Assembly (NCBI GenBank): GCA_000091205.1
Contig: AP006495.2
Strand: one strand, 5' to 3'
Length of the DNA stretch: 64,000 nt
Origin: Cyanidioschyzon merolae
Taxonomy: Eukaryota
A model generated the notes under the pieces. It was not told the origin of the DNA. It did no database searches and was given only the letters and a program-made list of their open reading frames with translations. Positions 21,438 to 55,895 of the stretch are shown one piece after another. Position 1 is the first letter of the stretch. The number at the start of each line of letters is the position of its first letter. Position numbers and translations under genes: made by a program.

Positions 21438-24400
21438 CTTGCCAGGGAATAAAGTTCGGTGACAGGAGTACAGTATACAAATGTTTAACTTATATTCGTC
21501 CCCGCCCGCTGATCAACACCGGGACGGCGATGATGCTGCGGGTGGCGGCGCGTGTGGTGCGCGGGGCTGCATATGCGGCTGCTGTAAAAGCGCAAGCTTG
21601 ATGCTCCGGCACCGTGCTCCACGTGCTTCTGCAAACGTTTTCTTCTCATGTGTGCGTGTGAATCATTCAGCGAACGCGTGGATGCGTAGAAGCGTCTTGC
21701 TATCGGGGCGGTGTCTTCTGGCATACCTTTGCCAGCAGATACGCTTTTTTTGTTCTGCCTCGGAATCACGAGCCAAAGGAATAAATCTCGCAAATTGGGG
21801 ACAGACTATGAAGGAACTTGATGCTGTCCGTACTAGATTGCGAACATGTGGCTTTGCTCGTAGAAATCAGTTACCCTACAGTGATCAAGTGAATGAACTA
21901 CCTGTCTCGTTGTCTTAATGATGGACGTTGTGTACTTAAACCTGAACTTATCAAACTCTGTCTACACCAGTGCCTTCTCGTCAGCGCATTTCCCACTATA
22001 GGTTCTCTAAGAGTTACCACCAAAGAGGCCACAGGATGCGAAGATTCCCCATCTTTGACATGAGCGGTGAGAAAGAGACACGGATCGGCCAGGGGCAAAG
22101 CTTGCATCGATGGGAGACCGCTGCGCGTTGAGCGTTGCGCTACGGATTTCGTTGTAAAAAGCGTACGCTTTTCTTTAAAGGGAAGCACGTTCGTCTTACT
22201 TGATGGGAGGTCATGCGAGGGAAATCGTAGAAGCGCATACGGATACTCAAAGGGAAGTAAACGGGTATTGATAAAGAACAGATATGCGAGAATTACGAAG
22301 ACTGCAGCCGCAGCGCCGATGCTGTCGATTTGCCAACGAAAACATCGCCAGACGGACAGAGTCGTTCAAAAAAACAGCCGTCGAAAGAGCACTTTGTAGC
22401 TTCTAAATCCCATTTTTTGTCCTGCTGTCAGACGATATCGCTCTGATTATTCAAAAGCGGTCACGGAGTATGCGGCTGAGACAAGCTTTCAGCTGCACTT
22501 TGTGCCAGCGTACTACCCCTGGTTCAATCCATTCGAAGTCGTCTTCTCTGTTGTCACACGCAAATTTTGTTACACGCTTCCATGAAAGAGCCGTTGGCGT
22601 CTTGACGCTGTTCTTCGGTAATAAGTTGTTCAACGAGACTTTCTTTACCTAAACACGTTTTGAAATGCCCTAGTGCCTCCCTGTTTGTGCACGGGATGGA
22701 GCGGCAAATTGCATCTCGGTACAAGGGCGTGACCATAGCCGAATAAGTAACCAAGACGCTCTTATGGAATAGTCTATGTATGTACGGCTCGAGGATTTTC
22801 ATTCCCATTGTTCACCCATTATGTCCAGTTTCCGATGCAACAACGTGTGCATTATATAAAGAAAACATCCATGCGAATGTGCCTACTAAAAGAGAAACAG
22901 AAGATACCAAATGAAATAGGAGAGAAAGTCCCTTATGAAAAGAGGACGAACATGGAACGGAAGCGGAATCTCTAGGAGCGGAAGCATCAGTCTAAAATCA
23001 TTGTCAATGCCTCCTTACGAAAACACAGCGGTGAGAATATGCGGAAAGTATGTTGGAGAACCCCATTAAGGATCGCGTGGGTTTTTCAAAGAGAAATTCT
23101 CGCCCAGTTCTCATCTTCTTGGCGCATTTTATCAACTTGCTGTTTGCGAGAGTTCCGGATGCAGTGTTACCAGCCGTCCACATTTCTCTGGAAATTTCGA
23201 TCGTACCCTGGAGCGACAATACAGCTGATGCCTGGGACAAAGGGTTCAATACGGCCTGATCGCATGATAGGAGATTACACACAGGCTTCCCGAAATACCT
23301 CGACAAGACGGCGAGCCACGTTGGCGAGAGCGACATCTACAGCGCAATTTCAAAAGCATGCCAGACCAGTCTCAAAACCCATACGCGGATCTGCCTAGAG
23401 CGCTTCATGAGGCGCCCCTTTAGGCATTGTAACTGTTGCAACTTCACCTTACCTACCCAGAAAACTGGAGACTGATCGAAGAAGTTCTTCGGGTGTCGAT
23501 GGAGGCAAGCAATGAGGTGGAGATAACGGAAGAGATCGGAATGGCAGCAAGTCCGGAAGCAATGTTGAACCCAGAACGAGACGTGCTTCACTTCGTACCA
23601 GTCAATCTTGTTGCTCTAGGTCTCGAACAGACGTTCGTCATAACCAAAGAATGGTTGCAAAGTGATGTCTTCTTTTCCTCCATCTGGCGCGACAATCCTC
23701 AGCAGCGCCCTCGAGTGCAGAGCAGAATCCCTCCCAGAGTCCGAGCGCCATCGCTGTCTCAAGCCTCTATTGGATGTAGTGCCCGTAGACCAGATCAGGA
23801 CGGATTATATCGCCTTAGACACTATTGGATTGTATGGCCTCCTTAGTGTGCTACATATGGTCTCTGCGCGCACGTGCGAAGCATTCGGAAAACGCTGCAA
23901 TGGGCATTGACTTGTTCGATCAAGATATCTCGTTCACTGGGATGAAATGGAGTGAAGTTTATAGGTACGCTTGAGGCCCGCGGAATATCATTCTTCGTGC
24001 AGTTTGAGAAACTTATACCTTAACCGAGAAACGAGTATCGTTCCCAAACTTTTGAGGTCGATAGAGAGAAAAATCTCTTGATGAGTTTGGATCCCGGATT
24101 AACGAACAGTGTGGCTGTCGACGTACTTCTAAACCAAGAGGACGGAGCGAGAGTTTTGAACGATATGCAGATGAAGCTGGCCAAGTATTTTGAGGGCTCG
24201 CTATCACCGGAAGTCATGCATGGCAGGCACGAGGAGGCACACCAACGGACGGATTGAAGGCACCAGTACCAATCATGACGCTCCGAGTACCTTATTGAAC
24301 AGAACAAGATGATTTGCACGCTTCATCAAGAGCGTGCGTGTGCGTCCCAACGGTTGATGCGGACGACTCTGGAGGGCGCACGTGAGAGTGCGCTGGGGTC

Positions 24401-26218
24401 AGCAACACTTCGCGTTCAATGGAAGCAAGAAGCGTGCGTTCACCAACGTGTTCAATCGTTTGGAATTGTGGTTACCAGTCCGCTGTGTCGTGTAGTTGTA
24501 GAATGTGGCGCTGGAAGTGCTGTAACGTTCATATTCTGTACTCCTGCTCCTTTTGACGAGCGCGTAAAACAATTGCATCAATCGGTTCTGTACGATTCCT
24601 GTCGAAGCGTTCGGGGCGACATGTGCGCATCACGGGTTGGGATTCGGGTACAGAGTAAACGAGGTATAGAAGCAGGTGACGATCAGCAGTAAGACGCACG
24701 AGATGGTGCATGGTAAGAAGACCGAACGCCGGATGCCGAAGCAATCGACAATGAGAGGCTTCCTCCGACGTGACCGTACCATCAAGAATTCGTTCATGCA
24801 CTTTCTAAAATAGGACTTGAGCGCCTCAATCAATATACCGCAATGTCTCCTGCATCCGGAGCGTCCAGAGGCTTGCTGTTGAACGAGCTTTCGAGCGAGT
24901 TGCTTAGTACACAGCTTGGACATCAATCTGTAGTGATGAACAGCTCGCACCGGAAGAAATCAGCAGCAAGGAGAGAGGGTTGAACTTCCTCTGGAGCAGG
25001 GCTTTGGTATGTCGTGGTCAACAATCCGACAAGGCTGGAGCACAGCATCTATGCGCCCGGTATGATTTTCCCAGGAAACTGGTGAGCCATAAGGGCATCC
25101 AATGGGTCTATATTGCTCTATTTATCGCAGCATGAACGTAACCATTTCCGTGAATGCTTCCGCGCAGCACAAAGGCGGGCAGCGTCGCCGATGCTTCTCG
25201 CACTTCTGTGCGGACAGTGATCCCGATATCGCCGAATGCGCTGCTCGAAGCTTCCGGACTGGGACCAGTGCTTCCAGTTGCGAAAGCACGCTCATCTGTG
25301 CCTTCTGGGTCTACTCCGGGACCGTAGATTCCGGCGTTAAACTATTTGCCTCATAAATGCGTAGCATTTCGAGTGGCAATAAAATGACAAGCCAGTTGTA
25401 GCTTTTTCCACACTTTCAACGTCCTCCTCGCACGCGAGGACGGTTGCCTTCTGCTGCACCTCCTGCCAAGGTGCACGCTTGCGAGTGCGTCGCTTGTTTT
25501 AACGTCGTCGGAACAAAGTCGAGCAGGATTTTCATCAGACCAGCACCGAAAGAATACAGGGCTATTTAAGAACAATTCCGGGAACTGGTCTTTTGGCAAA
25601 CCGTGGTCGGAATGCCCGCCAGCTGCAAAAGTGTCCCGTGTTGAGGAAAGGATGGCACGCAGAATGCCACTTCGCCTTGACAGTGCGTTGTTTCGTTGTG
25701 CCAGGTGGATGCATTTTATTGGATACCACTGGATATACGACTGTTGTCGGAAGTTGGCCAAAATAATACCCCACTTCTTCTCCAAATATGATAACTTTCA
25801 GGCGCCGGAGACACATCTTCGTATTCCTTATACGGGTTTTACCCAACGACACAGGTTCTCTGGATGTCGAAGCTACACTGGATGCTGCTGGCGACGCCGG
25901 ACGCCCTGTCGCGTTCGTTGCACGTCGACATAATAGGCTACAATCATGTCTTAGGGATGCCCGAAAGACGTTCGCTCTTCGCGCCTCGCTGCGAAGGCCG
26001 TTTCAGCATCAGTGCGGATCGAGTCCGCATTGGTGAAAGGCACGAACAAGTATTGTCCAGTTTTGGCCCAAGCTTTCCCTGCGCTCGATTCCCCGTCGAG
26101 CGGTGGACAGCGAATGCGCGCATACTACGCTCTGAGTGGCCGCAATTTGGAAAACGTGTGTCGCTTCTGCATCGCTGAGTTTCCCTAGTTGCCTTCTTGA
26201 ACAGTTTGAAGTGAATCA

Positions 26219-28604: not shown

Positions 28605-30106
28605 ACGTGCGACAATAATGGAACTGTTTCCGCCAAGCTTGCTCGACATACAAAGTCAATGTTCGGGTCGTTTCCGACTATCATGACCACTAGTCCTCGC
28701 ATGATCTTGCAGCGACTGCTTGATTCTTTCTCTCTTCTTTACGCTCATAAGCACGTCCGTCCCTCAATGCCCTCATGTTTCGTTACCAGCAGCTGAGGAT
28801 GTTCGTCGCAGCTTGCAAGCCCCGATTCCGCTGCTCGCAGCGGTTGTCAACGTATTCCATGCACACGCTGAGGTTGCCATGGACGCTCCGCTTGCCCCAA
28901 GGATCGTCTTGGCCCTCGGCCTCGGCGCACCTCTCGCAGCGGCGACACGTTACTATGGGTAGGTGTTCCCCAGCGTCCGCGATACCTCCTCCAGCTCCGA
29001 ACGCCGCACATTTGCGTACGGAGACTCGCCTCGTCGCGCGGCACACAACCATGACATGTACAGAAGGCTCTTCTCGATGCTATGCGACGTTTTCGCACCC
29101 GGTGCCGTACTCCGTGATCAGGGACTTTGTCTGAACTTTCTCCTCGACATGTGCGTTGGCCGCTGCACGCGCAATCGCACGCTGCCTTGTTCGAGAACTC
29201 ACCAGGTGATACGCGTCACGGCCTTGGTGACGTTCCAAATCGGTTTGCCCCGAGGAGAAGACGTTCGAATGTATCACAAGACTCCTCCACCGTTCTCCGC
29301 TGCTTCCGGCAAAGAGGCGGTTTTGTGCAACCGATGGTGTCCATGGAAGAAAACCAGTGCGGGAAGGAAGGGCCAGGCTGGCGATCGCGTCGAGCGATAC
29401 CGACTCCGCTGCGCTGCGGTTGTTCAAAGCGCTGCCGGAGTCTCGGCTCTGACAGACCACTGCCACGACTCAGGTTCGAGTCCAAGACCGTTTTCCGTGC
29501 AAGCAGAAGAGATGGGAGCCTTGGCGGGCCCCCGCCCAGGGTGGCTGCACGCGGCTGCTATTGAATGCCGTTTCGTCGATGGCGCCAAAGCGAGGACGCT
29601 TTATCTGTTGGACGGGATCGACCTTGTAAGGTGACGAGTGCAGGGAGCTCTCGGCGCGAGCCCGTGGAGAGGCTGACAACAAGCGGCGTCGCATTTCTCC
29701 TTGTCAACCCAGCTGTGCAGAACGCTGCGCCCTCCAGTCGTCCCGAAACACAAAGATGAGATATGTGAAGCACGCGTGATTTGAGCTTTCCATACGTAAG
29801 GACGGAGAAGAGTGGAAGCTGGTTCGTATGAGCTGGCTCGTGATGTCGGTTCCTATACGATGCCGTGCTCGAGGGCGTCGCGAACCATCGTCTTGATTCT
29901 CGTGATGCAACGAGCACTAGCGACAAAAGGTTGGCGGAGCCGCTCCGAAGCGACAACCGAGCATCCAAAACCTGGTCATGAATCCATACGCGCCCATTGC
30001 TACATTTAGGATGTCGAGTCTGTACATGTAGAGAAAGTCCAGGGAGAATCGAAATGTAAACAGAGCAGGTAGGTCAGTGTTCTTTTTTGTTATGATACGG
30101 ATATTG
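28605..30106. repeat. segmental direct duplication, copy 1 (about 1.5 kb, >99% identical to 32412..33913)
   Basis: The ORF track lists identical ORFs at a constant offset of 3807 bp (e.g. 28963..29634 = 32770..33441). Both junctions can be read directly in the sequence, and only a few substitutions separate the copies. Confidence 0.9.
29600..30070 (+). repeat. dispersed repeat family 1 copy forming the 3' end of segmental-duplication copy 1 (an identical copy at 33407..33877 lies in copy 2)
   Basis: Contains gaaacacaaagatgag...ggagaagagtggaagctggttcgtatgag...cgtgctcgagggcgtcgcgaacc...cgctccgaagcgacaaccgagcatcc...gatgtcgagtctgtacatgtagagaaag. Confidence 0.6.
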
Positions 30107-32411: not shown

Positions 32412-33913
32412 ATGTGCGACTATAATGGAACTGTTTCCGCCAAGCTTGCTCGACATACAAAGTCAATGTTCGGGTCGTTTCCGACTATCATGACCACTAG
32501 TCCTCGCATGATCTTGCAGCGACTGCTTGATTCTTTCTCTCTTCTTTACGCTCATAAGCACGTCCGTCCCTCAATGCCCTCATGTTTCGTTACCAGCAGC
32601 TGAGGATGTTCGTCGCAGCTTGCAAGCCCCGATTCCGCTGCTCGCAGCGGTTGTCAACGTATTCCATGCACACGCTGAGGTTGCCATGGACGCTCCGCTT
32701 GCCCCAAGGATCGTCTTGGCCCTCGGCCTCGGCGCACCTCTCGCAGCGGCGACACGTTACTATGGGTAGGTGTTCCCCAGCGTCCGCGATACCTCCTCCA
32801 GCTCCGAACGCCGCACATTTGCGTACGGAGACTCGCCTCGTCGCGCGGCACACAACCATGACATGTACAGAAGGCTCTTCTCGATGCTATGCGACGTTTT
32901 CGCACCCGGTGCCGTACTCCGTGATCAGGGACTTTGTCTGAACTTTCTCCTCGACATGTGCGTTGGCCGCTGCACGCGCAATCGCACGCTGCCTTGTTCG
33001 AGAACTCACCAGGTGATACGCGTCACGGCCTTGGTGACGTTCCAAATCGGTTTGCCCCGAGGAGAAGACGTTCGAATGTATCACAAGACTCCTCCACCGT
33101 TCTCCGCTGCTTCCGGCAAAGAGGCGGTTTTGTGCAACCGATGGTGTCCATGGAAGAAAACCAGTGCGGGAAGGAAGGGCCAGGCTGGCGATCGCGTCGA
33201 GCGATACCGACTCCGCTGCGCTGCGGTTGTTCAAAGCGCTGCCGGAGTCTCGGCTCTGACAGACCACTGCCACGACTCAGGTTCGAGTCCAAGACCGTTT
33301 TCCGTGCAAGCAGAAGAGATGGGAGCCTTGGCGGGCCCCCGCCCAGGGTGGCTGCACGCGGCTGCTATTGAATGCCGTTTCGTCGATGGCGCCAAAGCGA
33401 GGACGCTTTATCTGTTGGACGGGATCGACCTTGTAAGGTGACGAGTGCAGGGAGCTCTCGGCGCGAGCCCGTGGAGAGGCTGACAACAAGCGGCGTCGCA
33501 TTTCTCCTTGTCAACCCAGCTGTGCAGAACGCTGCGCCCTCCAGTCGTCCCGAAACACAAAGATGAGATATGTGAAGCACGCGTGATTTGAGCTTTCCAC
33601 ACGTAAGGACGGGGAAGAGCGGAGGCTGGTTCGTATGAGCTGGCTCGTGATGTCGGTTCCTATACGATGCCGTGCTCGAGGGCGTCGCGAACCATCGTCT
33701 TGATTCTCGTGATGCAACGAGCGCTAGCGACAAAAGGTTTGCGGAGCCGCTCCGAAGCGACAACCGAGCATCCAAAACCTGGTCATGAATCCATACGCGC
33801 CCATTGCTACATTTAGGATGTCGAGTCTGTACATGTAGAGAAAGTCCAGGGAGAATCGAAATGTAAACAGAGCAGGTAGGTCAGTGTTCTTTTTTGTTAT
33901 GATACGGATATTG
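32412..33913. repeat. segmental direct duplication, copy 2 (immediately upstream of the TerC start)
   Basis: Same sequence as 28605..30106 shifted by 3807 bp. It diverges after gatacggatattg at 33913. Confidence 0.9.
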
Positions 33914-33989: not shown

Positions 33990-34270
33990 CCCCTGCCATC
34001 GGCTTCAGCCTCTCCCCGTCTACTTTGACCCTCAGGGCGCTGCCTCAAGAAATTCTCTTGTGTCAGATCCTAGGGTCTCATCTTTAGCACCACACATCTC
34101 CTGATATTGATAGCAGCGTCAAAGTCTAGGTTCACCAACTCCATACTTTTCTTGCCGCTGGTTCAGCGCACCAGTGCCAGGAGTTGTCGAGCGCGCGCCC
34201 TCTGTGCGAACACCCGTATACCATCCGACCGTTTCGTCCGGAAGAAGTCCCACCGTCTGAGAAAAGAAAC
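33990..34270 (+). repeat. dispersed repeat family 3, copy adjacent to the end of duplication copy 2
   Basis: ctgcctcaagaaattctcttgtgtcagatcctagggtctcatctttagcaccacacatctcctgatattgatagcagcgtcaaagtctaggttcaccaactccatacttttcttgccgctggtt aligns with 41100..41390. Confidence 0.5.
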
Positions 34271-34890
34271 CGGTGTTCCTGTGCCTCAGACTGATTGCGA
34301 GGTTCCAGGAACGTTGTCGTTGCGATAACGGTGGAAGATGGCCGTGTGTGGACTAGAACTCTTTTTTCGCGGCTGTATCCAGCTTTTTCAAGTTCAAACG
34401 AGTGAACTGGTGGGAAAAGAGACGCCCCTGGAGGCTGCTATCGCCGCTTTTGCTTCCCGTACGGTAATCAACGCGTCGTATCCTAAGATTTTCCTCAAGA
34501 AGTTTTTAAGAATATAGGTTTATGGCGCGGATTGCATGTTCTTGGTTTCTTTTGCGTTCCTCATCCATCAGAGTACTGTGGAATGACTGACCCGAAAAGG
34601 GGATGCAGCCCTCCTTGCACAGTTCAGTAAAGAATATATCCTACATTCAATTGGTCTACGATATATACAGTACATTCCATTCTGAAGTCCTTCTCCTAGT
34701 ATACACCGCTGCGGGATGGAACAGATGTGAGTTGGAAGAATACACCACAACGTTGGTGTAGTGCCCTTGGCGGCAGTGCGAACCCTCTGCGAATAACAAG
34801 GTGGCGTGGAAACGCGTCTGCCTGCGTTCAAAGATTCAAGTCTTTCTCAGGTGTTCTGGTTAGAGTCTGCAACTTGTTTCCAACACAGCT

Positions 34891-38256: not shown

Positions 38257-39636
38257 TTAGGTGAGAAACAAATGCAACGTCTTGCAGGTTCGAGTGTCGG
38301 TATCTGTTACGGATAGCACGACTTGATCGGGAACTTTCGGATGACTGTCAGAAATGAAGATATCGCTCAACGGCCGCTCGAGATTCGGGCTTGTTGCTGC
38401 TTTGAGGCTTTGAGGTACGCTCATGTATACGGGTCGATAATCCCAGACAATTGTGGGACTGCGACAGTGGAGCACAGGATGCCTTTCTAGGAGTTCTATG
38501 AGCTCCTTGACAAGCATGTTTTTCGATACGCTTATGGCAACAGCGGAACCTGGACCACATACAGGACACGATAGTCGTCTCTCGATGAAAATCGAGTCGA
38601 TGTAGAGGCCATCGCTTCCATGAAAACTTGTCCAGGGGCACTGTGCATGAGAGCCGCCCCATACGAGCCTCGTCACTGCGAGTGCACAGGCGGCACCGGT
38701 AACTGCACTCGTTGTCGCCAATGCCGGCACACTGCGGTGCAGGACAGCTTTCACGAGAGCCGTGGTCACACCTTCGATACCGAACGCTGCAGCACGCTCC
38801 TGTGCTCTGGTATAAATCCATTCAAGATGCTCCGGGTTCTCCGGGTCTATGGACCGCACCGCCTGGTCGTCACGTGCAGGCCAAAGAACCGCCTGTGCGT
38901 AATGAATACAGTGCTCTGGCCGCAATGGTGTACCGGCGATCGTGCAAAGCGGTTGCCGACCTGCTTCATCTGGAAACAGATCAAGTATGCACTCGATGCA
39001 GGGCGTTTCATACGGGCGAATCGTTCGGACTTGGCCTGCGAGACCCTCCAGGCCCCCGTCGATGAGCACGGGCAAGTATTTCGACTGAACTGCACAGTTG
39101 GGAGAGGTAACAGGACGTACCACGTGGAACACGACTGTGTTTAACCAGCGGCGAGCCTCAACGGTATCCACACCCGACACGATGACATCAAACGCACGGT
39201 AGAAGGCAACAGGCATCTGTTCCGCGCTCGCCCAATATCCGCGTATTGTGCAGCCTGGAAAGCGCTCTTTAATTGCCTGGGCAGCTCTCAGCGCTTTGCT
39301 GGCACCAACGTCGGCGGAGCTGTAGAGCGTCTGGCGGTTGAGGTTGCTCTCGGCGACCGTGTCCCGGTCGAGCACCACCAGGTTTCGGAAACCACACAAG
39401 GCAAGCGCCCTCAGCGCTTCGCAACCGATCGCCCCCGCACCAACCACCAGAATTTGTAGGTTTGACTTGGCATGCTTCATTCGTACGTCAGTGGTGCATC
39501 GAGTCAGTGCTTCCGGTGCAAGAGCCGCTGGACCGGCGTCATCGGCGTGCGCCAAGAGCTCCGGGGCCGAGTGAGCTGAGCTTGCGTGCATGAAACGACA
39601 ACCCACGCTGGTGCATAGTTGGAAGTATAGGCGCAC
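38257..39636 (-). CDS. UBA3: NEDD8-activating enzyme E1 catalytic subunit (UBA3)
   Basis: ThiF fold starting ILVVGAGAIGCEALRALALCGF...DRDTVAESNLNRQ. The regions LIDGGLEGLAGQVRTIRPYETPCIECILDLFP and CTIAGTPLRPEHCIHYAQ align with the human UBA3 catalytic cysteine domain, and a C-terminal ubiquitin-fold E2-binding region is present. Confidence 0.85.
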   Translation of the reverse strand: MRLYFQLCTSVGCRFMHASSAHSAPELLAHADDAGPAALAPEALTRCTTDVRMKHAKSNLQILVVGAGAIGCEALRALALCGFRNLVVLDRDTVAESNLNRQTLYSSADVGASKALRAAQAIKERFPGCTIRGYWASAEQMPVAFYRAFDVIVSGVDTVEARRWLNTVVFHVVRPVTSPNCAVQSKYLPVLIDGGLEGLAGQVRTIRPYETPCIECILDLFPDEAGRQPLCTIAGTPLRPEHCIHYAQAVLWPARDDQAVRSIDPENPEHLEWIYTRAQERAAAFGIEGVTTALVKAVLHRSVPALATTSAVTGAACALAVTRLVWGGSHAQCPWTSFHGSDGLYIDSIFIERRLSCPVCGPGSAVAISVSKNMLVKELIELLERHPVLHCRSPTIVWDYRPVYMSVPQSLKAATSPNLERPLSDIFISDSHPKVPDQVVLSVTDTDTRTCKTLHLFLT

Positions 39637-41099
39637 TAGCCTAATACTTTCATATGCATATAACGGCCTGAACTTGGTATGAAGACGTCACTTGGTAAGC
39701 AACGCCAGGAAGAGAGCACTTGAGACTTTCTTGGACCGCGGTTCAGCCTCAGCGGTCAATGACTGGGCAATTACTCGAACGGCATACATCGCCCAGCGTT
39801 CTGTGCTGCAAGAGCGGTTAGGCCGGGCCCATCGCCGGTTGTTTTACAGAGAGCATGCGAATTTTTCATTCACAAGGGTCTCTTCTGCTTCGGTTTCGTA
39901 AGTTATATACGAGCATTCTCTGCTTGAATTTTGGACGGGTTGTTCTCCGTAAAACGACTGCCTTCGCTGCTCTTCGACCCGATCACGAAAAAGCCATCCA
40001 GAGTGCGAAGCAATCAGCGTTTGCGTTTGCTTCCATCGTGGACCGCCCTTACAAAGCACTTCTACGTCGGAACTGCTCACCGTCTCGATTCCCATTGAGC
40101 AATCGCATCCTTGAAGCATACTTCGCAGCGCGTTAGCACCGACGTGTTCCAGACATCGCAAAGGAATGGGGGAGACATTTTTCCGCCGTGAAGCACCAGT
40201 CGCTTGCTTGTCGGAAGTTTTCCCCGATCATGCTGGGAATGTCGCCATGCTGATTTCCGTCTGGACGGCAACTCGCCACCGGCGAGTCCAAAATCCCGCG
40301 TTTCAGCCAACCTGAGCCTCATGCGCAAAGAGCTGGAGGCGAATTCCGGCTAAATGCAGATGCGCCTCTCGAATTGGCCCAAGGCAAGAGGAGCCCAAAC
40401 CGACTGGCGAGCGTATGTCAAGCCCTGTTCAGCGGGTATTCTCCGTCGATCCCATGGCTGCGCATGAGGCGGTGTCGCCACAGTCGCTCTGTAGCAGAGC
40501 AGCGTAAATCGAATCGTACTAGTGTAAACTAGCGACAGCGCTGAAAGCATGCCGCACAATTTTGGATCCTTTTCCATATACCAATGCGTATTCGTCGAAA
40601 TCGATTGAAACGCTATCGTCTAAATGCCCCGTTCGAGACCGGATACCGGGGCCAGCGGCTTTACGCAACAATCGCATGGAACTGAGCACACGAGAATTGA
40701 ATCGCCAGCCCCAGCATACAGTCTGAGGCCTCGAGCCTCCTACCAGACAGACTGTCATGTTCGAGAGCCTCTATAAGGGCGTGCCTGTCAGCCTAAGCGC
40801 TAGACGCCAGCGGACAACATCTCAATGCAGCATGCACGCCATTTCGCATCACATCTGTGCTGGATGCGATCGCTTCGAAGCGGCATCTATCCGTGCACCG
40901 TATTTTATACACAATCCGTGGCCTCCATTTCCAGATTCCGCTCCCAGATCATACTCTGTTCGCGTATGTGTTCAAGCATGCACACACACAAAACGCCGTT
41001 CTAAAGTTGAGCGTCGCCGGCAGTGCACAGTCGTGGCGGTGAACACGCCCTAGACATAGCGTCTTCAACTGACGTGCAGACGCCTCGCAGCCGTTCTGG

Positions 41100-41390
41100 A
41101 CCGGCCATCTAGTACTGCCTTCAACTTTCTCTCATATAATTCCACCTTGAGAGGCTGCCCCAGTAAATGCGCTCTTGTAAACTCTTAAGGTCTTCTTTCC
41201 ATCACCGCACATCTTCTTATATTGATAGCGGCATTAAAGTTCGGTTCACTAATCCCATCCGTTTCTTGCCGTCGGTAGTTGTACTCACCAGCGCAAGTAG
41301 TCCTCGAACTTTCGCTCTCCTTTCCATTTGCTCTTCTGTCAACGCTCCGTACTTTGCTATATCCTCAGGGCTCCGCTGGCACTTTTCCAT
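41100..41390 (+). repeat. dispersed repeat family 3, copy immediately 3' of the broken ORF pair at 41682..42988
   Basis: ctgccccagtaaatgcgctcttgtaaactcttaaggtcttctttccatcaccgcacatcttcttatattgatagcggcattaaagttcggttcactaatcccatccgtttcttgccgtcggtag aligns with 33990..34270. Confidence 0.5.
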
Positions 41391-41681
41391 CTCGACCCTC
41401 TGAGGTGTGCCCCCCAACTCGTAAGGCGTATAGGACGTTCAGATCCCATCTATCGGTATCGTAACAAAACGCTTTGCACACTCCTTGTACGTTCTTGTCG
41501 TTGGAGCTGGCTTAGTCCCTTTTTTGGTCATCCAGCGACCTGCTCCGTATGCTACTACGAGCCTCTGAATCTCGTCCTCTTTGAGTGCGCTCAACTAATT
41601 GAAAATTTTCGCAAACGCGCGCTTTTTCCCACTGTACAAGTTCATACGCAGACGTGCCCACTGGGGCTTTGTATATTCTTT

Positions 41682-42988
41682 CTACAGCGCCTCCCAATGA
41701 GCAACGCGAACTTTCATGAATTTCAGAAAAGCTTGAAAGTCCGTTCCTCGGCTCGTCACCTCGCTCAAAGCTTCCACGTGCTCTTTCACTCCTGCATTCC
41801 ATCTCTCAATTTTCTTCCTTGCATTCATGATTCCCGATTCTCGGTAGTATCTCGCTCTCGAGAACCTCAACAGACGCATGTCTTTCTGACGTAATTTGCC
41901 GTCAGTACCATCTTCAGCACGCTTCGGTACAGCGATGATTATGATATTCGTGATTCCGGGGTCAGCGCTAACGATAAAGTCGTTCTCATGCACTTTCTGC
42001 GTCATAGGAACCGCCTTCTTCTTATCTTCATGCTCCGCTGAAGGCAATTTCGAAGATGAAACAGGACGATCTGCCTCCAACCGACGAGAATGAACACACT
42101 TGGGTACCCCATCGGTTTCGAACATCCACGCAAATACCTTTTGCTTGCTCACTCTCAGACGTTTGAAATCGAAGATATTCTTCCAGTGCGTCTCCCGGTT
42201 TTAACCGGTGAACTCCTCCCTGCTGACATTGAACTCAGGACTGATCTCCTTAATGATGCCATGAAGGACTCTGGAGTCGATAGTCACAGATGTGACTCAA
42301 TGTTGTACATTGCAACCGCTTTGAAGCGCTTCCCCATTAGGGCGGCCTTCCGTCTCTCCCAGTCTTCATTTTTTTCCTCACTCAGCCTCATGTCTGCTTT
42401 GCATTCGAGCTCTCGATCCAGGAATACGAAATACTGCAGGAGAAGCCGATAGTATCTTTCCTTATCTTTTTTCAACTCTGATTTCTTTTCTGCAGGATTC
42501 GCCAGCCCCAAGACTGCACGATGCTCTTGTATAGCTGCGCGGATGACGGAATCCTCATTTGTGCTCCTGCGTGACGCCTTCTTGTCGAAGAATTCGATCT
42601 CACCTTCATACTGTCGATTGTTCGTAATGGCATTGATAATCGTCCATATCCCTTTGCGAGAGAAGCCCCGATAGAGTGCAAAGACAGAGCGTATTATGGA
42701 GCGTTCGAGTTTCACGATCACGTGGTTCTTCAAGTTCGTCAGGTACATCTTCGCCCCGTCCAAATTTATTCTGAGACTAGAAGCGGGTGTGCTGTGTCCG
42801 GGCATAGCCCTGGTCGGGTTGGAATCCCAGTATATGGCTTCACGTTGCCGCAGGCAGTGCGTCTGTATGCACAGCTGGAGGCTCCCAGGTTGATTATGCG
42901 CTACGGCCCCGTGTTGAATGAACCACGGCTCGAAAAGACGCCCCCACTGGTATGGCAAAGCTTCTCTGTCTCCGTCCTGCATCCGCAC
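41682..42988 (-). pseudogene. unknown Lys/Arg/Glu-rich ORF pair (234 aa + 156 aa) broken by stop/frameshift; possible decayed mobile-element gene
   Basis: Two adjacent minus-strand ORFs, 42284..42988 then 41682..42152, of similar basic composition. The second contains IVSADPGITNIIIIAV, which weakly resembles a TnpB/Fanzor RuvC-I (DPG) motif. A family-3 repeat lies just 3' of them, and non-protein-like overlapping ORFs occur on the other strand. Confidence 0.3.
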
Positions 42989-43511
42989 CGGCGGTTTAGG
43001 CTCTATTGCGCATGCTCACTCCGGGCTCGGCGCACGATAGAACATATGAAACGACCACTAGTCCCGAAAGAAAGTTTATGAAACGGAACTTGAAAGTAGG
43101 TGCATCGTGATGGACGCTTTTTCGTTTACCGTTACCCTTCCATCCCGAAATCCGGTATCGATGGTCCATGGAAACGTTTTCTCATCGGAAAAATCATCGG
43201 TGCCAAGTCCATTTGAAAAGTTTTGAATGGAGCCGCGGTTCCGCTGCATATCGAAGCGAAGGCCGCACGTGATCTGGAGGCGCTCATACTTTTCTCAACT
43301 TTTTCTTGTCGAGACAACGGACCAGAGAAGTGAAGGATCCACGTTTGTTCGTCCTTTGCTTCGCGGTCGTGGTTCTGAAAGGCACCTGTTGTTGCCTCGT
43401 TCCGAGTGCGCTGGGTAGGAGCCAAAGCTTGTGCACAGTTCGCTAGACTGAGGGAGCACGCTACTCGTTGTTCTCGGTTAAAAAGCGGATTGGATTCGGT
43501 TTCTAGGTGCA

Positions 43512-45062
43512 ATGGCAGCGGTTACCGATACTTTGGGCTCACGACTCGAACTTGAGCGGCGTATTGTGGTTCATATAGATATGGACTGCTTCTACGCTCA
43601 GGTCGAACGGAAACGCCTCGATTTAGCTGAGGACGTCCCGCTTTGTGTCGTCCAGTGGAACAGCATTCTTGCTGTGAGCTACGCAGCTCGAGCAGCAGGG
43701 ATCAAGCGAGGTGCAACACCGCAGGAGGCCAAATCCAAGTGCCCCGAGTGTGTGCTTGTACACGTAGAAACCGTTGATGCTGCCGGAAGGAAACCACAAG
43801 TCTCTGAACTTGACCTGTCTGAGGAAGCCTCTATAGTGCGAGCCGCGAACACCGTCTGCTTAGATCGATATCGGTTGGAGTCCGAGAAGATTTTTGGGAT
43901 TCTCTCCCGCTTTAGTGACGCCGTTGAGCGCTGCTCAATTGACGAAGCTTTCATAGAGCTTACGGACGTGGTCGATGATTTCGACGAGGCAGTCCGTTTG
44001 GTACAGCGCATGCGAGACGCTATCCTTGATGAGCTTAGATACACCTGCAGCGCTGGGGTTGCCTGCAACAAAATGCTCGCTAAGTTCGCTAGCTCTACGA
44101 ACAAACCGAACAAACTGACCGCCATACCTTGGAGCGAGACGAACTCCATTCTCGCCAGGATTCCGCTTTCACGGGTTCGCGGGCTTGGTGGCAAATTCGG
44201 AGCTGAGCTGCAGCGGAACTTTAAGGCCGAAACGCTCGCTGACTTGTCGCAGCTGTCGATGGCAGCGCTGCAGGCCGCATACGAGCCCTGCACAGCGGAA
44301 TGGCTCTTCTGGCTGGCTCGGGGTTATGATCCCAGTCGAGTGGAGCCACGTGATCGTCCGCGGAGTCTGCTAGCGGCGAAATCCTTTGCCCCGGTAGATA
44401 CCTGGCAGGATGCGCGCCGCATCCTCTTCCTGCTGGCAACTCGCCTAGAGCAGCGTATTGAACGCGATACCAGTATGCATCATCGTCGACCGAGAACATT
44501 GTGCGTATCTTTTACTTCTGCGCAAGCGGGACTCCAAGGTCAACGGCATCATCATGCAAGTCGTTCTGGGCCATTTCCAACCTGCGCGAAAGAGGACGCA
44601 GCCGCAAGCATTGCAGAAGGTGCTGAGAAGCTGCTGCGGTCGATACGGTCTGGTTTTCGATTCCCATGCAAGCGCTTTATGCTGGAAGCGACGAACTTTC
44701 AACCCATCGCAAGCGGCGCCTATTCCATACGTTCTTACATGGGCAAACCGGGTAAGCGCGCGCTCAAAGCTGACGTGCCCTCGGGCGGCATCGCAGAATG
44801 CGAGCGCGAGCAGAACCCCATATCTGGGTACGCACCGGCAGCGAGAAATGAATGCAGTTTCGCGGGTGCCACGCCGACACCCGAGCGCGAGCACCAAGGC
44901 ATCGCAAATGCGAAACTAGTTCTTCGGGCTGGCAGTAGCGTTAGCGGTAACGAGGCGCTCGTGAGTCACTGGAAGCGTCACTGCGGAGGTGCGACCAGAC
45001 GCATTCATGACGGCTGTATTACTTGCTACTTTTCGCAGCCGAAGCGCTCTGAAACTCGTTGA
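43512..45062 (+). CDS. POLH: DNA polymerase eta (Y-family translesion polymerase, RAD30/POLH)
   Basis: Opens with IVVHIDMDCFYAQVERKRL...PLCVVQWNSILAVSYAARAAGIKRG, then SIDEAFIELTD, VACNKMLAKFASSTNKPNKLT and LSRVRGLGGKFG, which are the classic Y-family palm, fingers and little-finger motifs. Confidence 0.9.
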   Translation: MAAVTDTLGSRLELERRIVVHIDMDCFYAQVERKRLDLAEDVPLCVVQWNSILAVSYAARAAGIKRGATPQEAKSKCPECVLVHVETVDAAGRKPQVSELDLSEEASIVRAANTVCLDRYRLESEKIFGILSRFSDAVERCSIDEAFIELTDVVDDFDEAVRLVQRMRDAILDELRYTCSAGVACNKMLAKFASSTNKPNKLTAIPWSETNSILARIPLSRVRGLGGKFGAELQRNFKAETLADLSQLSMAALQAAYEPCTAEWLFWLARGYDPSRVEPRDRPRSLLAAKSFAPVDTWQDARRILFLLATRLEQRIERDTSMHHRRPRTLCVSFTSAQAGLQGQRHHHASRSGPFPTCAKEDAAASIAEGAEKLLRSIRSGFRFPCKRFMLEATNFQPIASGAYSIRSYMGKPGKRALKADVPSGGIAECEREQNPISGYAPAARNECSFAGATPTPEREHQGIANAKLVLRAGSSVSGNEALVSHWKRHCGGATRRIHDGCITCYFSQPKRSETR

Positions 45063-46660: not shown

Positions 46661-48619
46661 CCTCGGGGCAGCACGTCACAAGGCAGAGCACAGCGCACGA
46701 GGTAGAGGTCTTGCGTTCGATGAACGAACATCGTTCTTCGCTGCCATGCCCACGCTGGGATGATGCAGACGCGATACCGCCAGGCGGCACAAGCCCCGGT
46801 TTCTCGCCAGGCACCTCAGGTCTCTATCTTTATCCGAGTAAGATAGAACCCTGAACCGCTTGCTCTGTTTATGTATTTCTACTTCTTTTGGAACTTTTTT
46901 AGATATACAGCATCGAAACTGCGAGTGACGCATAGAGGGCTCGCGAGTTCATTCGCAGTTTTAAGATGATCTTGCGTGTTTTCGTCTTGCTTCCATCGAT
47001 TCTCTGCCGCTGGAATGTTTAACGTCACCCTCATCAAGAACATTCGCGACGTTCTCGAACACGAGTTCGTGAAATAGACGATATCATGATCCAATGTACA
47101 TGTGAAAGCCTCGGCGCTTTTCGTTTTCTTACGTGAAGAGTGCTCGGGTCATGCATGCTCAAAGTTTTCCGAATTTCTCTTTTGAGGCAACTCCTGGACG
47201 CTGCAAGTTGCGACACTGGATTGCTGACGATAAATACATAGCATCCTCTCATGATAACTTTTGCATAAGCTCATGCCGAAGTTTCACTGAACATTTCACG
47301 TCAAATAACCGTTTCTGATTGGAAGAAAAATTCTCCTCGCTTTGAGACCATCAGCGACACGGCATATAACCGTAGTATGCCACCTCACATGGTATATGCC
47401 CCAAGGGGCTCCCGTCTCTTCTGTTTCCATGGAAGAAGGCCTTGGACTCGGATTTCAGTTATCCAAGGAATCGTTTCCGGAGGGACGCGTGTCCCCGGCT
47501 CGCAAGCATGGAGCGTAGACGGATCGAAATTTCTCGCATTGTTCTCCGGCCAGGATTTTCCTTCCAGCACTTTTCCATCATGAAGAACATCGCAATCGAC
47601 AAATGCGCTACCGAGTGGTACAACATGTGCTTGCGGGTGGAGCAGACATATTACGCACCGAGAGATTCTCCCATTAGAACCTCCTGATCGCCGGGTACGG
47701 TACCAGGCACGAAAGCGGAGGATGGCATCGAGAGGTGCTTTCTGGATATGTCTAGGGCACGAACCGAACGATGAAGTAGGAGTGCACGCGTCACAGCGTG
47801 GAGCTCGGAAGAAAATGAGGAACTGTTGTAGTCGTGTGGCAATACGTGATCAAAGCCAATTGTTACCGCTGCAAAAGGCGCACCGAGCATAGACAAAGAG
47901 CAGATTCAAAAATTGCGACCTCCGCCTGTGCATGCAATGCGTAGAAAACAGCCGGAAGCAGCGGAATCGGGATTTGAACGCTGGCTTCAACCTCTATCGA
48001 CTGCGGACAACAGATCAGGAGGGAAAGGAGCGACTAGCGTTTTTAAAACCGGATATAAGAAAAAAAGAACGTTGTGGAAGAAATAACCCGCAAAGACTGA
48101 TATTGGTAATAGAGGGAAGCGACCCAAACGTGAGTATATATGCCCGTGTCAAAAAACCTGCTCCACATCAGTAGGAAACGCCCGTCCCATGCTGCCCAGC
48201 ACTGTTGTCTTTGAATCGCTCATCACCATCGTCAAGCTTCCTGGTGTTGCATAACTGAATCGAATCCAGTTTTTCGATCTAGAATCACAGCATCGAACTA
48301 CATGAACCCCCGTACGCAGGCGCTACATTGTGGCATCCAGGGGAGCTACCAAGGCTTCCGCCCAGATCCCCACAATCCCGTGTACCACAAACCAGATTCC
48401 CCTTCAATGCGAAGGGTTCGTTTAAAAGATCCCATACACGCCGAGCCAACTGCGGACCTCGTTCGTAGACAGAACAGGTTTGCTTCACCGATGCGGGGAG
48501 CAGGTTAAAGGCCGACTCTTCCACCCGAAGATGCGTCAGCGCTTCAGAGGACTAGACAATCGTCGACCACCGTAACTTTTTGGTCGCTTCCCTGGAAGTA
48601 GCTCCTGGGTCAGACTCGT

Positions 48620-53235: not shown

Positions 53236-53720
53236 GGCGAGAGCCTGTCAAACAAAAAGCGGCCTGTAATCTTTGGAGAGCAACAGCACCAAATACCATT
53301 ACCTTTCACGAAGAATAAACCACGAAGCGTGTTGCAGGCCTCGTATACACAAGTATCCGAGTATACGCCAAGAAATGCACCTGACGATAAAATGAGCCAC
53401 GAGTTGACCCGATGCGCTTTTTCTTCTCTCTCCGTCAGTTTACCACGAGCAGCAGTCTGTTTTTCACTCGGTCCGCAAACGTTACCGTCAGAGGCCCACA
53501 AGTCAGTCACACACAAACACCGACACACCTATCCGCACCAACGTCACCGAATATTGTAATCTAAAATGTGTTCAGTGTCACGAGGCGCCGAAGCGACGAC
53601 GGCTCGGGTGGCGTTCAAGACGTCCGGTCCGGTGCCTTCAGGTCCGCCTCCGGGGCGTATCAAGCGAATCCGCGGCGGGCGCCTTGCGCGCAGCGAATCG
53701 CTGCAGGCGCAGATTAACCC

Positions 53721-54610
53721 GGATGCATGCTCGTCGATCGAGCGCTCTTCAGCGTGTACCCGGGATACTCCATTGCGTATGAATGAGATGCGCAAGCCCC
53801 GGATGCATGCTCGTCGATCGAGCGCTCTTCAGCGTGTACCCGGGATACTCCATTGCGTATGAATGAGATGCGCAAGCCCCGGATGCATGCTCGTCGATCG
53901 AGCGCTCTTCAGCGTGTACCCGGGATACTCCATTGCGTATGAATGAGATGCGCAAGCGTCGAATGCATGCTCGTCGATCGAGCGCTCTTCAGCGTGTACC
54001 CGGGATACTCCATTGCGTATGAATGAGATGCGCAAGCGTCGAATGCATGCTCGTCGATCGAGCGCTCTTCAGCGTGTACCCGGGATACTCCATTGCGTAT
54101 GAATGAGATGCGCAAGCCCCGGATGCATGCTCGTCGATCGAGCGCTCTTCAGCGTGTACCCGGGATACTCCATTGCGTATGAATGAGATGCGCAAGCCCC
54201 GGATGCATGCTCGTCGATCGAGCGCTCTTCAGCGTGTACCCGGGATACTCCATTGCGTATGAATGAGATGCGCAAGCGTCGAATGCATGCTCGTCGATCG
54301 AGCGCTCTTCAGCGTGTACCCGGGATACTCCATTGCGTATGAATGAGATGCGCAAGCGTCGAATGCATGCTCGTCGATCGAGCGCTCTTCAGCGTGTACC
54401 CGGGATACTCCATTGCGTATGAATGAGATGCGCAAGCGTCGAATGCATGCTCGTCGATCGAGCGCTCTTCAGCGTGTACCCGGGATACTCCATTGCGTAT
54501 GAATGAGATGCGCAAGCGTCGAATGCATGCTCGTCGATCGAGCGCTCTTCAGCGTGTACCCGGGATACTCCATTGCGTATGAATGAGATGCGCAAGCGTC
54601 GAATGCATGC
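53721..54610. repeat. 80-bp minisatellite, 11 complete tandem copies plus a partial 12th; two unit variants in blocks
   Basis: The unit ggatgcatgctcgtcgatcgagcgctcttcagcgtgtacccgggatactccattgcgtatgaatgagatgcgcaagcccc starts at 53721, 53801, 53881 and so on. Variant B (gcgtc|gaat junction) replaces variant A (gcccc|ggat) in the order A A A B B A A B B B B B. The overlapping 68-aa minus-strand ORFs are a periodic artefact of the array. Confidence 0.95.
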
Positions 54611-55895
54611 CGCCCTGCCCAGCGTATGACGAGACGAATCATTCACGGTAGTGGTGCTGCATCCGCCGGAGATGCGTGGAATGTATGCACACCCCAATGC
54701 TAGGGTGGCTGACTATGCGCTGGTCTAGTGGGAACCCAACTTTGTCGATTGTGTGATCTCATCAGGCAAGGATCAACGTCCGGTAGCGAGATTCAGCCAA
54801 CTGTGTAGCAGACTGGCGACATTCGCACGCCGTGTGTTCGTTCCAGTGTGATGCATCCAAGGATTCCATGTCTATCCGAATTACTGGGCCGGATACGTGC
54901 AGGTCCCGGCGGAACGAAACTCGTAGTGAACTTGCCAACAGCGTCCAATATATTCTGGAACTAGCTCATGAAACGATTTTTCGAAACACCCCTTGGCGGT
55001 CGCAATCGCGCTCGTTTCATCGCCGATGTTCATAACAGCGCACGGTTGGTGCCCTGTATTTCGCTTGTCGGACATGCGATTTCGGGAAAAGATTCCGTTC
55101 GCTTTGCTGCACAATATTGCGATACCTTTGGCATTGGCGTCGAGCAAGCAGCTGTTGCGTCTCTCTCCCGAGAGCATTGTGGTACAAAAAAGTCCCAGCG
55201 GCACTTGTGAAACGTCCTATAGTAATCGAGGGAGCCTGGGCTCACTCGAAGCAGCAGCGACTGCGTTTGGGACTGCAGCGACGCGACGAGCGATCAACCA
55301 CAAACGCTGCAAAGCACATCATACGCCTTGCATTGTGTACGAGACTAGCCTCGTGCCGTAACAGACCACAAATGGGTGTATCGCTTTTTTATAACTGCAC
55401 ACTGGCATTTGTACTGAAGAACGATTTAGCGCTCATTCGTGTTTTCGCTGGAATCTTCTTCGACTTGTTGCGTATGGAACGCGTGCAATAAACTAGAATT
55501 GAAAACATACACGTACTTCAACGACCAGTCTGGCGAGAACGCTGGCGAGAGCAGCATGCCATGAACCCAGATGAACACGCTCGCAAACTGTCGCAGAATT
55601 ACCGGCGATACTGTTAGGTTTTATTGGTTCTCTCGTGCTGTCAATTCGAAGCGTCGGACCATGTGTCCACTAGTCCAGCAGCAAACATCGATAGCGTATC
55701 GCATCAGCGAGTCATCCAGATCGATACGTTAACGCATTCTGGATTGATTGCAGCAGCGCTGCGTACAACGCACTGCTAGTCTTTACGCTGTGCTGCGTAC
55801 TTCTCCGGTAGTCAGCACGATACCCTTGGGTGAAAGTTTACCTGTACTGCGGGACGTGAACGCTGTCCTAGCTTGGATTTTTCCTCTGGATTGCA

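Follow-up and report, generated by a model that had tools for sequence, protein, structure and literature searches.

Fanzor1 proteins are eukaryotic relatives of bacterial TnpB and Cas12. The Fanzor1 mechanism has been described (PMC11423790), and about 150 Fanzor1 elements of the CMe-1A type have been reported from the genome of Cyanidioschyzon merolae (Bao & Jurka 2013, Mobile DNA 4:12; PMC3627910). According to that description, CMe-1A elements are ~80% identical to their consensus, ~3 kb long and without TIRs, their TSDs are undetermined, and their 5' 635 bp correspond to the repeat TE-N2_CMe. The window analyzed here, the whole stretch of 64,000 nucleotides, was assigned to C. merolae 10D by exact protein matches, including that to polymerase eta (BAM81111). 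A sequence-only reading had proposed that a broken pair of open reading frames (ORFs) in this window might derive from a decayed mobile element with a TnpB/Fanzor-type nuclease. This proposal is borne out by identity to relatives, by profile, by fold and by dispersed copies, and none of the counter-evidence it had listed was encountered. We estimate with roughly 93% probability that the locus is one dead copy of a non-autonomous C. merolae DNA transposon family whose only gene encodes Fanzor1. The element matches the CMe-1A/TE-N2_CMe family, as judged against the published description rather than the Repbase consensus sequence. The finding is already known, being a CMe-1A-type Fanzor1 copy in a described family, and the earlier proposal was correct but ordinary.

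The two minus-strand ORFs of 234 and 156 aa are present between UBA3 and POLH, and the suspected stop or frame break between them proved to be a 1-nt frameshift near 42290 together with an in-frame stop at 42203-42201. Both derive from a single Fanzor1 RNA-guided nuclease gene that has decayed. Three-frame reading recovers this gene as a continuous decayed ORF with RuvC-I, II and III, broken up by five in-frame stops and two 1-nt frameshifts. Of the 234-aa ORF, the initial ~75 codons are read-through of the 5' non-coding segment and not Fanzor sequence; its Fanzor1 part corresponds to the REC/WED region (profile positions 142-272, E=8.8e-16), and the ORF shows 69% identity to residues 28-184 of P0001, the first sequence of a 39-member family profile. 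The 156-aa stretch alone carries a signal far above chance against the protein-family profile (Table 1). It contains SADPGITNIIIIAV, where a RuvC-I DxG-like block had been noticed, and the Asp of this motif, which does not vary across the family alignment, lines up with the DPG of Fanzor1 proteins of solved structure. The acidic 25-aa repeat, present here as a single unit, occurs in 1 to 5 units in other copies, with repeats visible in P0014 and P0018, and the region is predicted to be disordered (pLDDT below 50 at P0001 residues 259-302).

The RuvC-II, zinc-finger and RuvC-III parts had been considered missing, but decayed forms lie downstream in the three-frame reading: the RuvC-II remnant, RGLLALVSTT (41306-41277) and, after a 1-nt deletion, NFNAAINIRRC (41241-41209). 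In RuvC-II, the catalytic Glu has become Gly (41447-41445) and the Arg codon a stop (41441-41439). In RuvC-III, the window reads GTGAACCGA-ACTTTAATGCC where the consensus reads GTGAACCGAGACTTTAATGCC. The family triad of D318, E490 and D559/N561 is invariant or nearly so, whereas in the window copy the RuvC-I Asp alone survives of D...E...D(N). Given the loss of the RuvC-II Glu and RuvC-III Asp codons, the window copy is a pseudogene of the family and not a working member. Truncated and mutated beyond function, it cannot perform RNA-guided cutting.

Table 1. Features of the Fanzor1 element and its neighbors, in window coordinates
Feature	Position	Strand	Remarks
ThiF/E2_bind gene, UBA3-like	38257-39636		one neighbor of the broken ORF pair
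Whole Fanzor1 element, CMe-1A type, internally deleted	40983..43195	(-)	5' end 43195; 3' end about 40983-40991
3' untranslated region, conserved among copies	40983..41187	(-)	alignment of 31 copies
RuvC-III NFNAAINIRRC	41209..41247	(-)	1-nt deletion in catalytic Asp codon (GAC), frameshift ~41241
Decayed RuvC-II IPIDGI*TSYT	41427..41459	(-)	IPVDEFRTSYT in the family
156-aa ORF	41682..42152	(-)	profile positions 303-451, E=9.7e-41
RuvC-I motif SADPGITN	41969-41946	(-)	in 156-aa ORF; catalytic Asp codon 41963-41961
75-bp (25-aa, acidic) tandem repeat, single unit	41965..42038	(-)	just upstream of RuvC-I; repeated HSPs in many loci
234-aa ORF	42284..42988	(-)	Fanzor1 only from 42763 down; ends at 1-nt deletion/frameshift near 42290
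Junction of 988-bp internal deletion (relative to full-length copies)	42757..42765	(-)	
5' terminal non-coding segment, TE-N2_CMe-like	42764..43195	(-)	starts GATTTTTCCGATGAGAAAACGTTTC
DNA polymerase eta	43512-45062		other neighbor of the broken ORF pair

Homology searches identified 222 related proteins (best E=3e-178), and the less broken relatives, of 558-593 aa, carry ADPGNTN, VDEFRTS and NRDFNAAIN. The joined window translation is 62-70% identical to these relatives (62-69% by tblastn) and covers positions 142-596 of the family profile. At E<=0.001, the wider family comprises 1200 representatives, including proteins of Tetrabaena and Haematococcus, and the Asp, the Glu and the NAAxN motif are invariant in its alignment. 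The sequence-only reading had suggested a profile search, and the diverse 39-member profile matches solved Fanzor1 structures in the PDB, namely PpFz1 (9cf0, E=1.1e-20), SpuFz1 (8gkh, 2.2e-12) and GtFz1 (9cer, 1.8e-6); the catalytic motifs are aligned with these structures and no other nuclease was matched. The fold was assessed on P0001, a less broken relative, rather than on the window copy. Its AlphaFold model (predicted with pLDDT 82.5 and pTM 0.76) retrieved Fanzor1 structures as all of the top seven Foldseek matches in the PDB (E 1.7e-12 to 2.7e-9, TM up to 0.60), aligned over their full length in 614-741 columns, whereas TnpB and Cas12 followed at E about 1e-2.

Pfam scans of the ORFs, the joined translation and five near-intact homologs gave nothing meaningful, and PDB searches by phmmer of the joined translation and with a shallow 19-sequence profile returned chance matches only. 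The Fanzor1 link needs the deeper 39-sequence profile or the fold; neither Pfam nor single-sequence searches pick up this clade at all. A precomputed domain match to PF26935/DUF8286 is on record. The paired CxxC of the zinc-binding TNB module, which lies between RuvC-II and RuvC-III, was also sought, and the 39-member alignment holds no conserved cysteine pairs, its one Cys lying in RGLLWC. The TNB region is still modeled, and 6 of the 39 members match PF07282. The absence of the CxxC pairs is a peculiarity of the clade and no ground for excluding it from Fanzor1.

The sequence-only reading had also placed a "family 3" repeat immediately 3' of the gene and compared it to a terminal repeat. The repeat is real, but it is neither 3' of the gene nor terminal: family 3 is the C-terminal coding region of the Fanzor1 gene itself together with its 3' untranslated part. 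By blastn, 41154-41271 matches 34039-34157 at 75%, and nhmmer places that copy at 34144-33959 (E=5e-27). This was thought to be the only other copy in the window (33990..34270), but nhmmer detects a third at 11314-11492. As had been noted, the copy near 34 kb abuts a segmental duplication, lying ~46 bp from the 1.5-kb pair 28607-30106 / 32414-33913. The repeat 16399-16882 / 34206-34676 beside this fragment was considered and assigned to a different dispersed family outside the Fanzor gene.

The boundaries of the element were defined by comparison with its other copies. At the 3' side, the ~80% DNA similarity shared with 80 paralogous loci breaks off sharply at 40981-40996; at the 5' side, similarity begins about 43190-43208. 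The 5' segment resembles solo repeats at 2075-2523, 17233-17692 and 9528-9690 as well as sequence upstream of other Fanzor copies. The internal deletion took out what remained of the 5' region along with ~165 codons of the N-terminus, among them the basic NLS-like start (window 43196-42765 corresponds to 2156-2581 of locus L032, and 42757-42500 to 3570-3827), consistent with the profile coverage, in which the window match starts at position 142 of 629. The missing N-terminal ORF is visible in locus L001 (3659-4069), where the upstream in-frame ORF has the basic N-terminus MKKKVHDPGG...ARKKQKT...KKEKRNRRG, a candidate NLS. Since the same deletion endpoints recur in at least two other copies, L049 and L042, at different loci, the window copy belongs to a deletion-derivative subfamily.

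Metagenomes containing C. merolae yielded 277 related stretches, and the copies are ~80% identical to each other, with sharp common ends and unrelated flanks. The ends read GATTTTTTC... and ...GCGTTT(GGTGTTGG), with a loose GA(T) ahead of the 5' T-run; the G/T-rich 8-mer that follows GCGTTT could still be part of the element. A search for TIRs, TSDs and a TAM across the aligned termini of 22-39 non-redundant copies found none. Among the 80 loci, no fully intact Fanzor1 ORF is present; the longest stop-free stretch, of 772 aa in L008, is frameshifted at the N-terminus. No transposase gene is encoded in the element.

It is conceivable, if unlikely, that this cis anatomy marks an undescribed mobilization of Fanzor-carrying DNA in a eukaryote, with the window copy still a dead relic. 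The features that would fit such a process are the lack of TIRs and TSDs, the conserved hairpin lying within a few bases of the 3' terminus, the sharing of the 5' end with a solo repeat of 635 bp, and the spread of a deletion subfamily that no longer had the nuclease N-terminus. Mobilization might then proceed by single-strand "peel-and-paste" or rolling-circle transposition with a transposase encoded elsewhere in the genome, or by homing in trans driven by a few intact Fanzor1 copies. As for known carriers, a Helitron was rejected, as the ends GATTTTTTC... / ...GCGTTT are not 5'-TC / CTRR-3' and no Rep/Hel gene turned up in the loci examined; a Replitron carrier was set aside as well, none having been reported in red algae.

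The ~200-nt 3' untranslated region with its hairpin may represent an omega-RNA scaffold and/or a cis end signal. The hairpin (41018-40991) adjoins the element end, and folding of 39 non-redundant copies predicts it in the majority (mean z=-1.8, with 15 below -2). In the window copy, it carries three mismatches in ten pairs and is not predicted, its fold energy being no better than that of shuffles. A hand-drawn three-hairpin covariance model found all copies, matching 65 sites. Pairing in the candidate 3' structure holds in 82.8% of cells versus 33-50% with slid partners, and covariation is weak, barely above shuffles (score 0.109 versus 0.099, with 31 of 500 shuffles as high). RNAalifold gave no convincing consensus structure for the 3' alignment, and an Rfam scan of the whole window at the gathering threshold gave no matches. 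The many G/T-rich helices from a naive helix scan were discarded as spurious.

That the protein-dead copy is still functional, through an omega-RNA acting in trans or as promoter or regulatory DNA for polymerase eta or UBA3, appears distinctly improbable. Its 3' 200 bp remain 80% like the family consensus and score 103.5 bits with the covariance model, just 316 bp separate its 5' end from the start codon of polymerase eta, and the insertion is fixed across the strains observed. However, the terminal hairpin is degraded, with 3 of 10 pairs broken (z=+0.2), and the 3' part is conserved no more than the dead coding part, as expected for neutral decay.

Less probable still is that the element is of the Fanzor2/IS607 type or carries a TnpB of prokaryotic type (IS200/IS605), taken up for instance from a bacterium or giant virus, and not Fanzor1. 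The RuvC architecture is the same, PF07282 (the Cas12f1-like/OrfB TNB domain) is touched by 6 of the 39 relatives, TnpB and Cas12f are among the structures listed by the fold search, and the hairpin adjoins the 3' end as in IS200/IS605. Nevertheless, Fanzor1 structures match 9-10 orders of magnitude better and over the full ~600 residues versus ~270, and the sequence profile matches Fanzor1 entries only. The reconstructed protein of ~720 aa with a basic N-terminus also contrasts with ~400 aa for TnpB, no TnpA (Y1 HUH) or serine-recombinase ORF occurs in the element or in fuller copies, and the named relatives are nuclear genes of green algae.

A lineage-specific host gene decayed in place as an ordinary pseudogene outside any mobile element can practically be dismissed: the locus is fixed (in six of six environmental C. 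merolae contigs the site is occupied by this sequence at 99.5% identity, and no empty orthologous site was found among them) and the C. merolae 10D protein set has no annotated gene in the 2.2-kb UBA3/polymerase eta interval, but dozens of paralogous copies share sharp 5' and 3' ends amid unrelated flanks, the window itself holds further Fanzor1-family fragments and a second, divergent copy, and the family has been published as a transposon (PMC3627910).

For the favored reading, a dead copy of a Fanzor1 transposon, the following course can be envisaged. An intact protein, reconstructed at ~720 aa, comprises a basic N-terminus, a REC/WED region and a split RuvC with the D-E-D triad. By analogy with biochemically characterized Fanzor1, it would have bound an omega-RNA from the 3' end of the element, whose 3' guide would read into flanking DNA, so that matching double-stranded DNA would be cut beside a short motif. 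Such cutting presumably favors retention or spread of the element. The window copy descends from a subfamily in which the 988 bp, with some 165 codons at the start of the gene, were already gone; it went on to accumulate the two frameshifts and five in-frame stops, its RuvC-II Glu and RuvC-III Asp codons are lost, and its terminal hairpin is mismatched. The analysis thereby shows the homology, the fold, the structure and ends of the copies and the disabling lesions, while RNA guidance, the function of the 3' hairpin and the mode of mobilization are inferences.

The significance of the locus beyond annotation is small: the 2.2-kb stretch is a dead, internally deleted Fanzor1 element of the CMe-1A type. 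It does illustrate that a DxG-type motif standing alone in a broken ORF proved a valid lead. To the 2013 description, the analysis makes minor additions: the 5' and 3' boundaries at base level, the conserved hairpin beside the 3' end, the subfamily that propagated with the 988-bp deletion, the 25-aa repeat of variable number ahead of RuvC-I and the lack of the usual zinc-finger cysteines. Should an intact copy exist, which the window locus itself does not offer, a Fanzor1 from an alga of about 45 °C and pH 2 could be of interest for genome editing.

Among known systems, Helitron, IS200/IS605 and IS91 elements resemble this family in lacking TIRs and TSDs and in carrying a conserved hairpin within a few bases of the 3' end; unlike in such hairpin-ended single-strand transposons, no Rep/HUH or helicase gene occurs here, and the resemblance serves as a lead only. 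Bacterial TnpB (ISDra2, 8H1J) and Cas12f share the D-E-D RuvC core, a gene in a mobile element and structured non-coding sequence up to the element's 3' end, but match at E about 1e-2 over about 270 columns. The TnpB protein is about half the size and is partnered with the TnpA Y1 transposase, which is absent here. SpuFz1 (8GKH), PpFz1 (9CF0) and GtFz1 (9CER) agree with the family in full-length fold, in the aligned DPG, DEFRT and NRDxNAAxN motifs and in having the nuclease gene inside a transposon. They differ in that identity is 13-16%, the TNB CxxC pairs are absent in the C. merolae family, a variable acidic 25-aa tandem repeat precedes RuvC-I, and the window copy is non-functional. The closest system is CMe-1A itself: the window copy departs from it in its length of about 2.2 kb versus about 3 kb and in the 988-bp internal deletion, and shares with it the same genome, the Fanzor1 protein, copies ~80% alike and mostly decayed, no TIRs or detectable TSDs, and a 5' end in common with a short solo repeat.

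The object in the window is a dead, internally deleted member of a C. merolae Fanzor1 transposon family that has been published before. Exact matches of four window ORFs to the GenBank proteins BAM81103, BAM81109, BAM81111 and BAM81115 place the window on an 866,983-bp chromosome of the red alga C. merolae 10D. Between the UBA3-like and polymerase eta genes, where protein accessions run consecutively from BAM81110 to BAM81111, the two minus-strand ORFs of 234 and 156 aa described in the sequence-only reading, the second with SADPGITNIIIIAV, were found as stated; the stop or frame break said to part them proved to be a 1-nt deletion followed by an in-frame stop. When the minus strand was read in three frames, every expected motif was found along the rebuilt path. 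The downstream catalytic parts, previously reported as absent, are therefore broken rather than missing, with RuvC-II and RuvC-III remnants both recovered. The ORF pair is a single decayed gene that extends beyond the limits first drawn for it.

Features of the decayed Fanzor1 copy, its neighbours and related repeats in the window
Feature	Coordinates	Strand	Remarks
UBA3-like gene (ThiF/E2_bind)	38257-39636	minus	One neighbour of ORF pair
DNA polymerase eta	43512-45062	plus	Other neighbour
5' segment, TE-N2-like	43195-42764	minus
234-aa ORF	42284-42988	minus
988-bp jump	42765/42757	minus	Versus full-length copies such as locus L032
1-nt deletion ending 234-aa frame	near 42290	minus	Three-frame reading
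In-frame stops in next frame	42203, 41684, 41597, 41441	minus	Three-frame reading
156-aa ORF	41682-42152	minus	Includes SADPGITNIIIIAV
75-bp unit	42038-41965	minus	Acidic 25-aa stretch, predicted disordered
RuvC-I motif ADPGITN	41969-41946	minus	Three-frame reading
VVAYGAGRW	41558-41532	minus	Three-frame reading
IPIDGI*TSYT, ruined RuvC-II	41459-41427	minus	From IPVDEFRTSYT; three-frame reading
RGLLALVSTT	41306-41277	minus	Three-frame reading
Second 1-nt deletion, new frame change	~41241	minus	Three-frame reading
NFNAAINIRRC, ruined RuvC-III	41241-41209	minus	From NRDFNAAINIRRC; three-frame reading
Fifth stop	41187	minus	Three-frame reading
Non-coding last ~200 nt	41187-40983	minus
Isolated Fanzor fragment	11314-11492	plus	RuvC-III coding and proximal 3' UTR only; nhmmer E=9e-23
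Isolated Fanzor fragment	34144-33959	minus	RuvC-III coding and proximal 3' UTR only; nhmmer E=5e-27
Solo TE-N2_CMe-like repeat	2075-2523	plus	Type of Fanzor 5' end
Solo TE-N2_CMe-like repeat	17233-17692	plus
Solo TE-N2_CMe-like repeat	9528-9690	minus

The window protein was not recognized in Pfam or in direct PDB sequence searches. A search of a 5.8-billion-protein collection yielded 222 homologs, the best of which (558-593 aa, E about 1e-178) are 62-69% identical to it and retain ADPGNTN, VDEFRTS and NRDFNAAIN undamaged. Starting from P0001, a less broken homologous protein, an exhaustive HMMER search with a cut-off of E<=0.001 returned 1200 representatives, some of them from the green algae Tetrabaena socialis and Haematococcus lacustris; they are typically 600-700 aa long and 30-41% identical. 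Thirty-nine of these were aligned, and the RuvC-I Asp, RuvC-II Glu and RuvC-III NAAxN are invariant among them; six match PF07282. Run against solved structures, the resulting profile matched only Fanzor1, namely PpFz1 (Parasitella, E=1.1e-20), SpuFz1 (Spizellomyces, E=2.2e-12) and GtFz1 (Guillardia, E=1.8e-6), with the three RuvC motifs in register. Additionally, the best seven PDB matches of the P0001 AlphaFold model (pLDDT 82.5, pTM 0.76) were all Fanzor1 (E 1.7e-12 to 2.7e-9; >600 aligned columns, TM <=0.60), whereas Cas12 and TnpB reached E about 1e-2 over ~270 columns. The earlier guess at a TnpB/Fanzor-type nuclease is thus borne out by both profile and model. The window pieces cover positions 142-596 of the 629 in the family profile, to which the 156-aa ORF region alone aligns at E=9.7e-41.

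The suspicion of a decayed mobile element was likewise correct, given many ~80%-identical copies with sharp ends and unrelated flanks. A metagenome scan gave 277 related stretches, from which 80 loci were retained; their identity to the window copy is about 80%. The JGI hot-spring metagenomes concerned (contig series Ga0078972 and Ga0080006) contain C. merolae itself, so most of these loci are probably paralogous genomic copies; the orthologous UBA3-POLH interval is also present there, at 99.5% identity and with the insertion. Similarity among copies starts at ~43195 (GATTTTTYCGATGACAAAACGTTTA) and stops sharply at 40981-40996, at ...CGAACGGCGTTT, after which a G/T-rich 8-mer possibly still belongs to the element. 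Neither terminal inverted repeats nor target-site duplications were seen at the ends of the aligned copies. The element matches the published description of CMe-1A, of which C. merolae has about 150 copies of about 3 kb, ~80% identical to consensus, without TIRs and with undeterminable TSDs; their 5' 635 bp form a separate repeat, TE-N2_CMe, with about 70 copies (Bao & Jurka 2013, PMC3627910). The same authors reported some intact Fanzor1 ORFs; none of our retained loci has a fully intact one. Near one copy (L001/L002), an RVT_1 ORF pair at 814-2710 (-), ~1 kb upstream, points to an adjacent retroelement and to transposon clustering. Two Fanzor elements in L043/L062 (1-5347) stand head-to-head, 5' ends facing with ~750 bp between, an arrangement consistent with nested or clustered insertion of family members.

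In the 234-aa ORF, codons 1-75 read through the 5' segment by chance. The adjoining 988-bp deletion takes away what would remain of the 5' region along with some 165 N-terminal codons, including a basic, NLS-like start (MKKKVHDPGG...ARKKQKT in L001). The identical junction occurs in L049 and L042, with different flanks and only ~75% identity, so the deletion predates amplification of this subfamily; its copies were already nuclease-defective at insertion. The 75-bp unit, single here, occurs one to five times in other copies, and the non-coding last ~200 nt are as conserved as the gene.

The ~290-bp "family 3" repeat (41100..41390) is real. Rather than a terminal repeat 3' of the gene, it is the gene's own RuvC-III coding region and proximal 3' UTR, and instead of one further copy there are two fragments, which are isolated internal pieces of other elements. 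Both fragments end at GGAGGCGTCTGCAC, ~85 nt before the true 3' end of the family. As had been noted, the copy at 34144-33959 abuts a segmental duplication, lying ~46 bp from a direct 1.5-kb pair (28607-30106 / 32414-33913; 99.5% identity, 3807 bp apart). Each duplicate holds a 72-nt stretch (28809-28880, 32616-32687) matching 47912-47983 in inverted orientation; the latter overlaps a stretch (47941-48012) whose resemblance to the family's RuvC-III region is very weak (E=0.53). A dispersed inverted repeat, 16399-16882 (+) / 34206-34676 (-), ~70% identical and found also in L056, L068 and L014, directly adjoins the 34-kb fragment; it was rejected as a Fanzor part, being unrelated to the gene.

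Furthermore, a second, more decayed Fanzor1-like pseudogene at 23272-24876 (+), with 26-28% aa identity to P0001 and its homolog P0014, probably represents a different, older subfamily. It covers profile positions 118-599, with SLDPGLTNSVAV (RuvC-I), KKRAFTNVFNRLE and remnants of RuvC-II (FCTIPVEAFGATCAHHGLG) and RuvC-III (RDLSASINIPQC). Two of the solo TE-N2_CMe-like repeats, A and B, remain alike for ~100 bp beyond the deletion junction and end close to a small hairpin; between CCTTCCGCCTAGAAGG of A and CCTCCCGCCTAGGAGG of B, the stem has changed on both sides with pairing kept. Elsewhere, two Mrs2-like magnesium-transporter genes flank a tandem array of ~13 80-bp units (53638-54737), 97-99% identical in the middle and degenerating towards the edges.

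In TnpB and Fanzor systems, the 3' end of the element encodes the omega-RNA, whose guide extends into the flank. In most of 39 non-redundant copies, a 9-12-bp hairpin can form that ends 2-3 nt short of the boundary (mean z -1.8 against shuffles), with at least two stem versions, CGUCGUUCGA/UCGAACGGCG and ACGUUUUUC/GAAAAGCGU. In a 65-site covariance-model alignment, 82.8% of cells pair, against 33-50% with slid partners; covariation is barely above shuffles, and only one clean double change separates the two stem types. The hairpin is consistent with a 3'-end omega-RNA on thin statistical support. A DNA signal recognised by a transposase encoded elsewhere is an equally good reading, because the element itself carries no transposase gene. 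Three mismatches disrupt the hairpin of the window copy, whose fold is no better than that of shuffled controls.

Fanzor1 proteins that have been characterised act as dsDNA endonucleases with a RuvC D-E-D(N) site; they are guided by an omega-RNA and require a TAM (PMC11423790). By analogy with that family, rather than from the window locus, the C. merolae protein would perform omega-RNA-guided cutting. The clade of the window protein differs from the characterised members: the cysteine pairs of the zinc-binding TNB module are absent, and a variable acidic repeat precedes RuvC-I.
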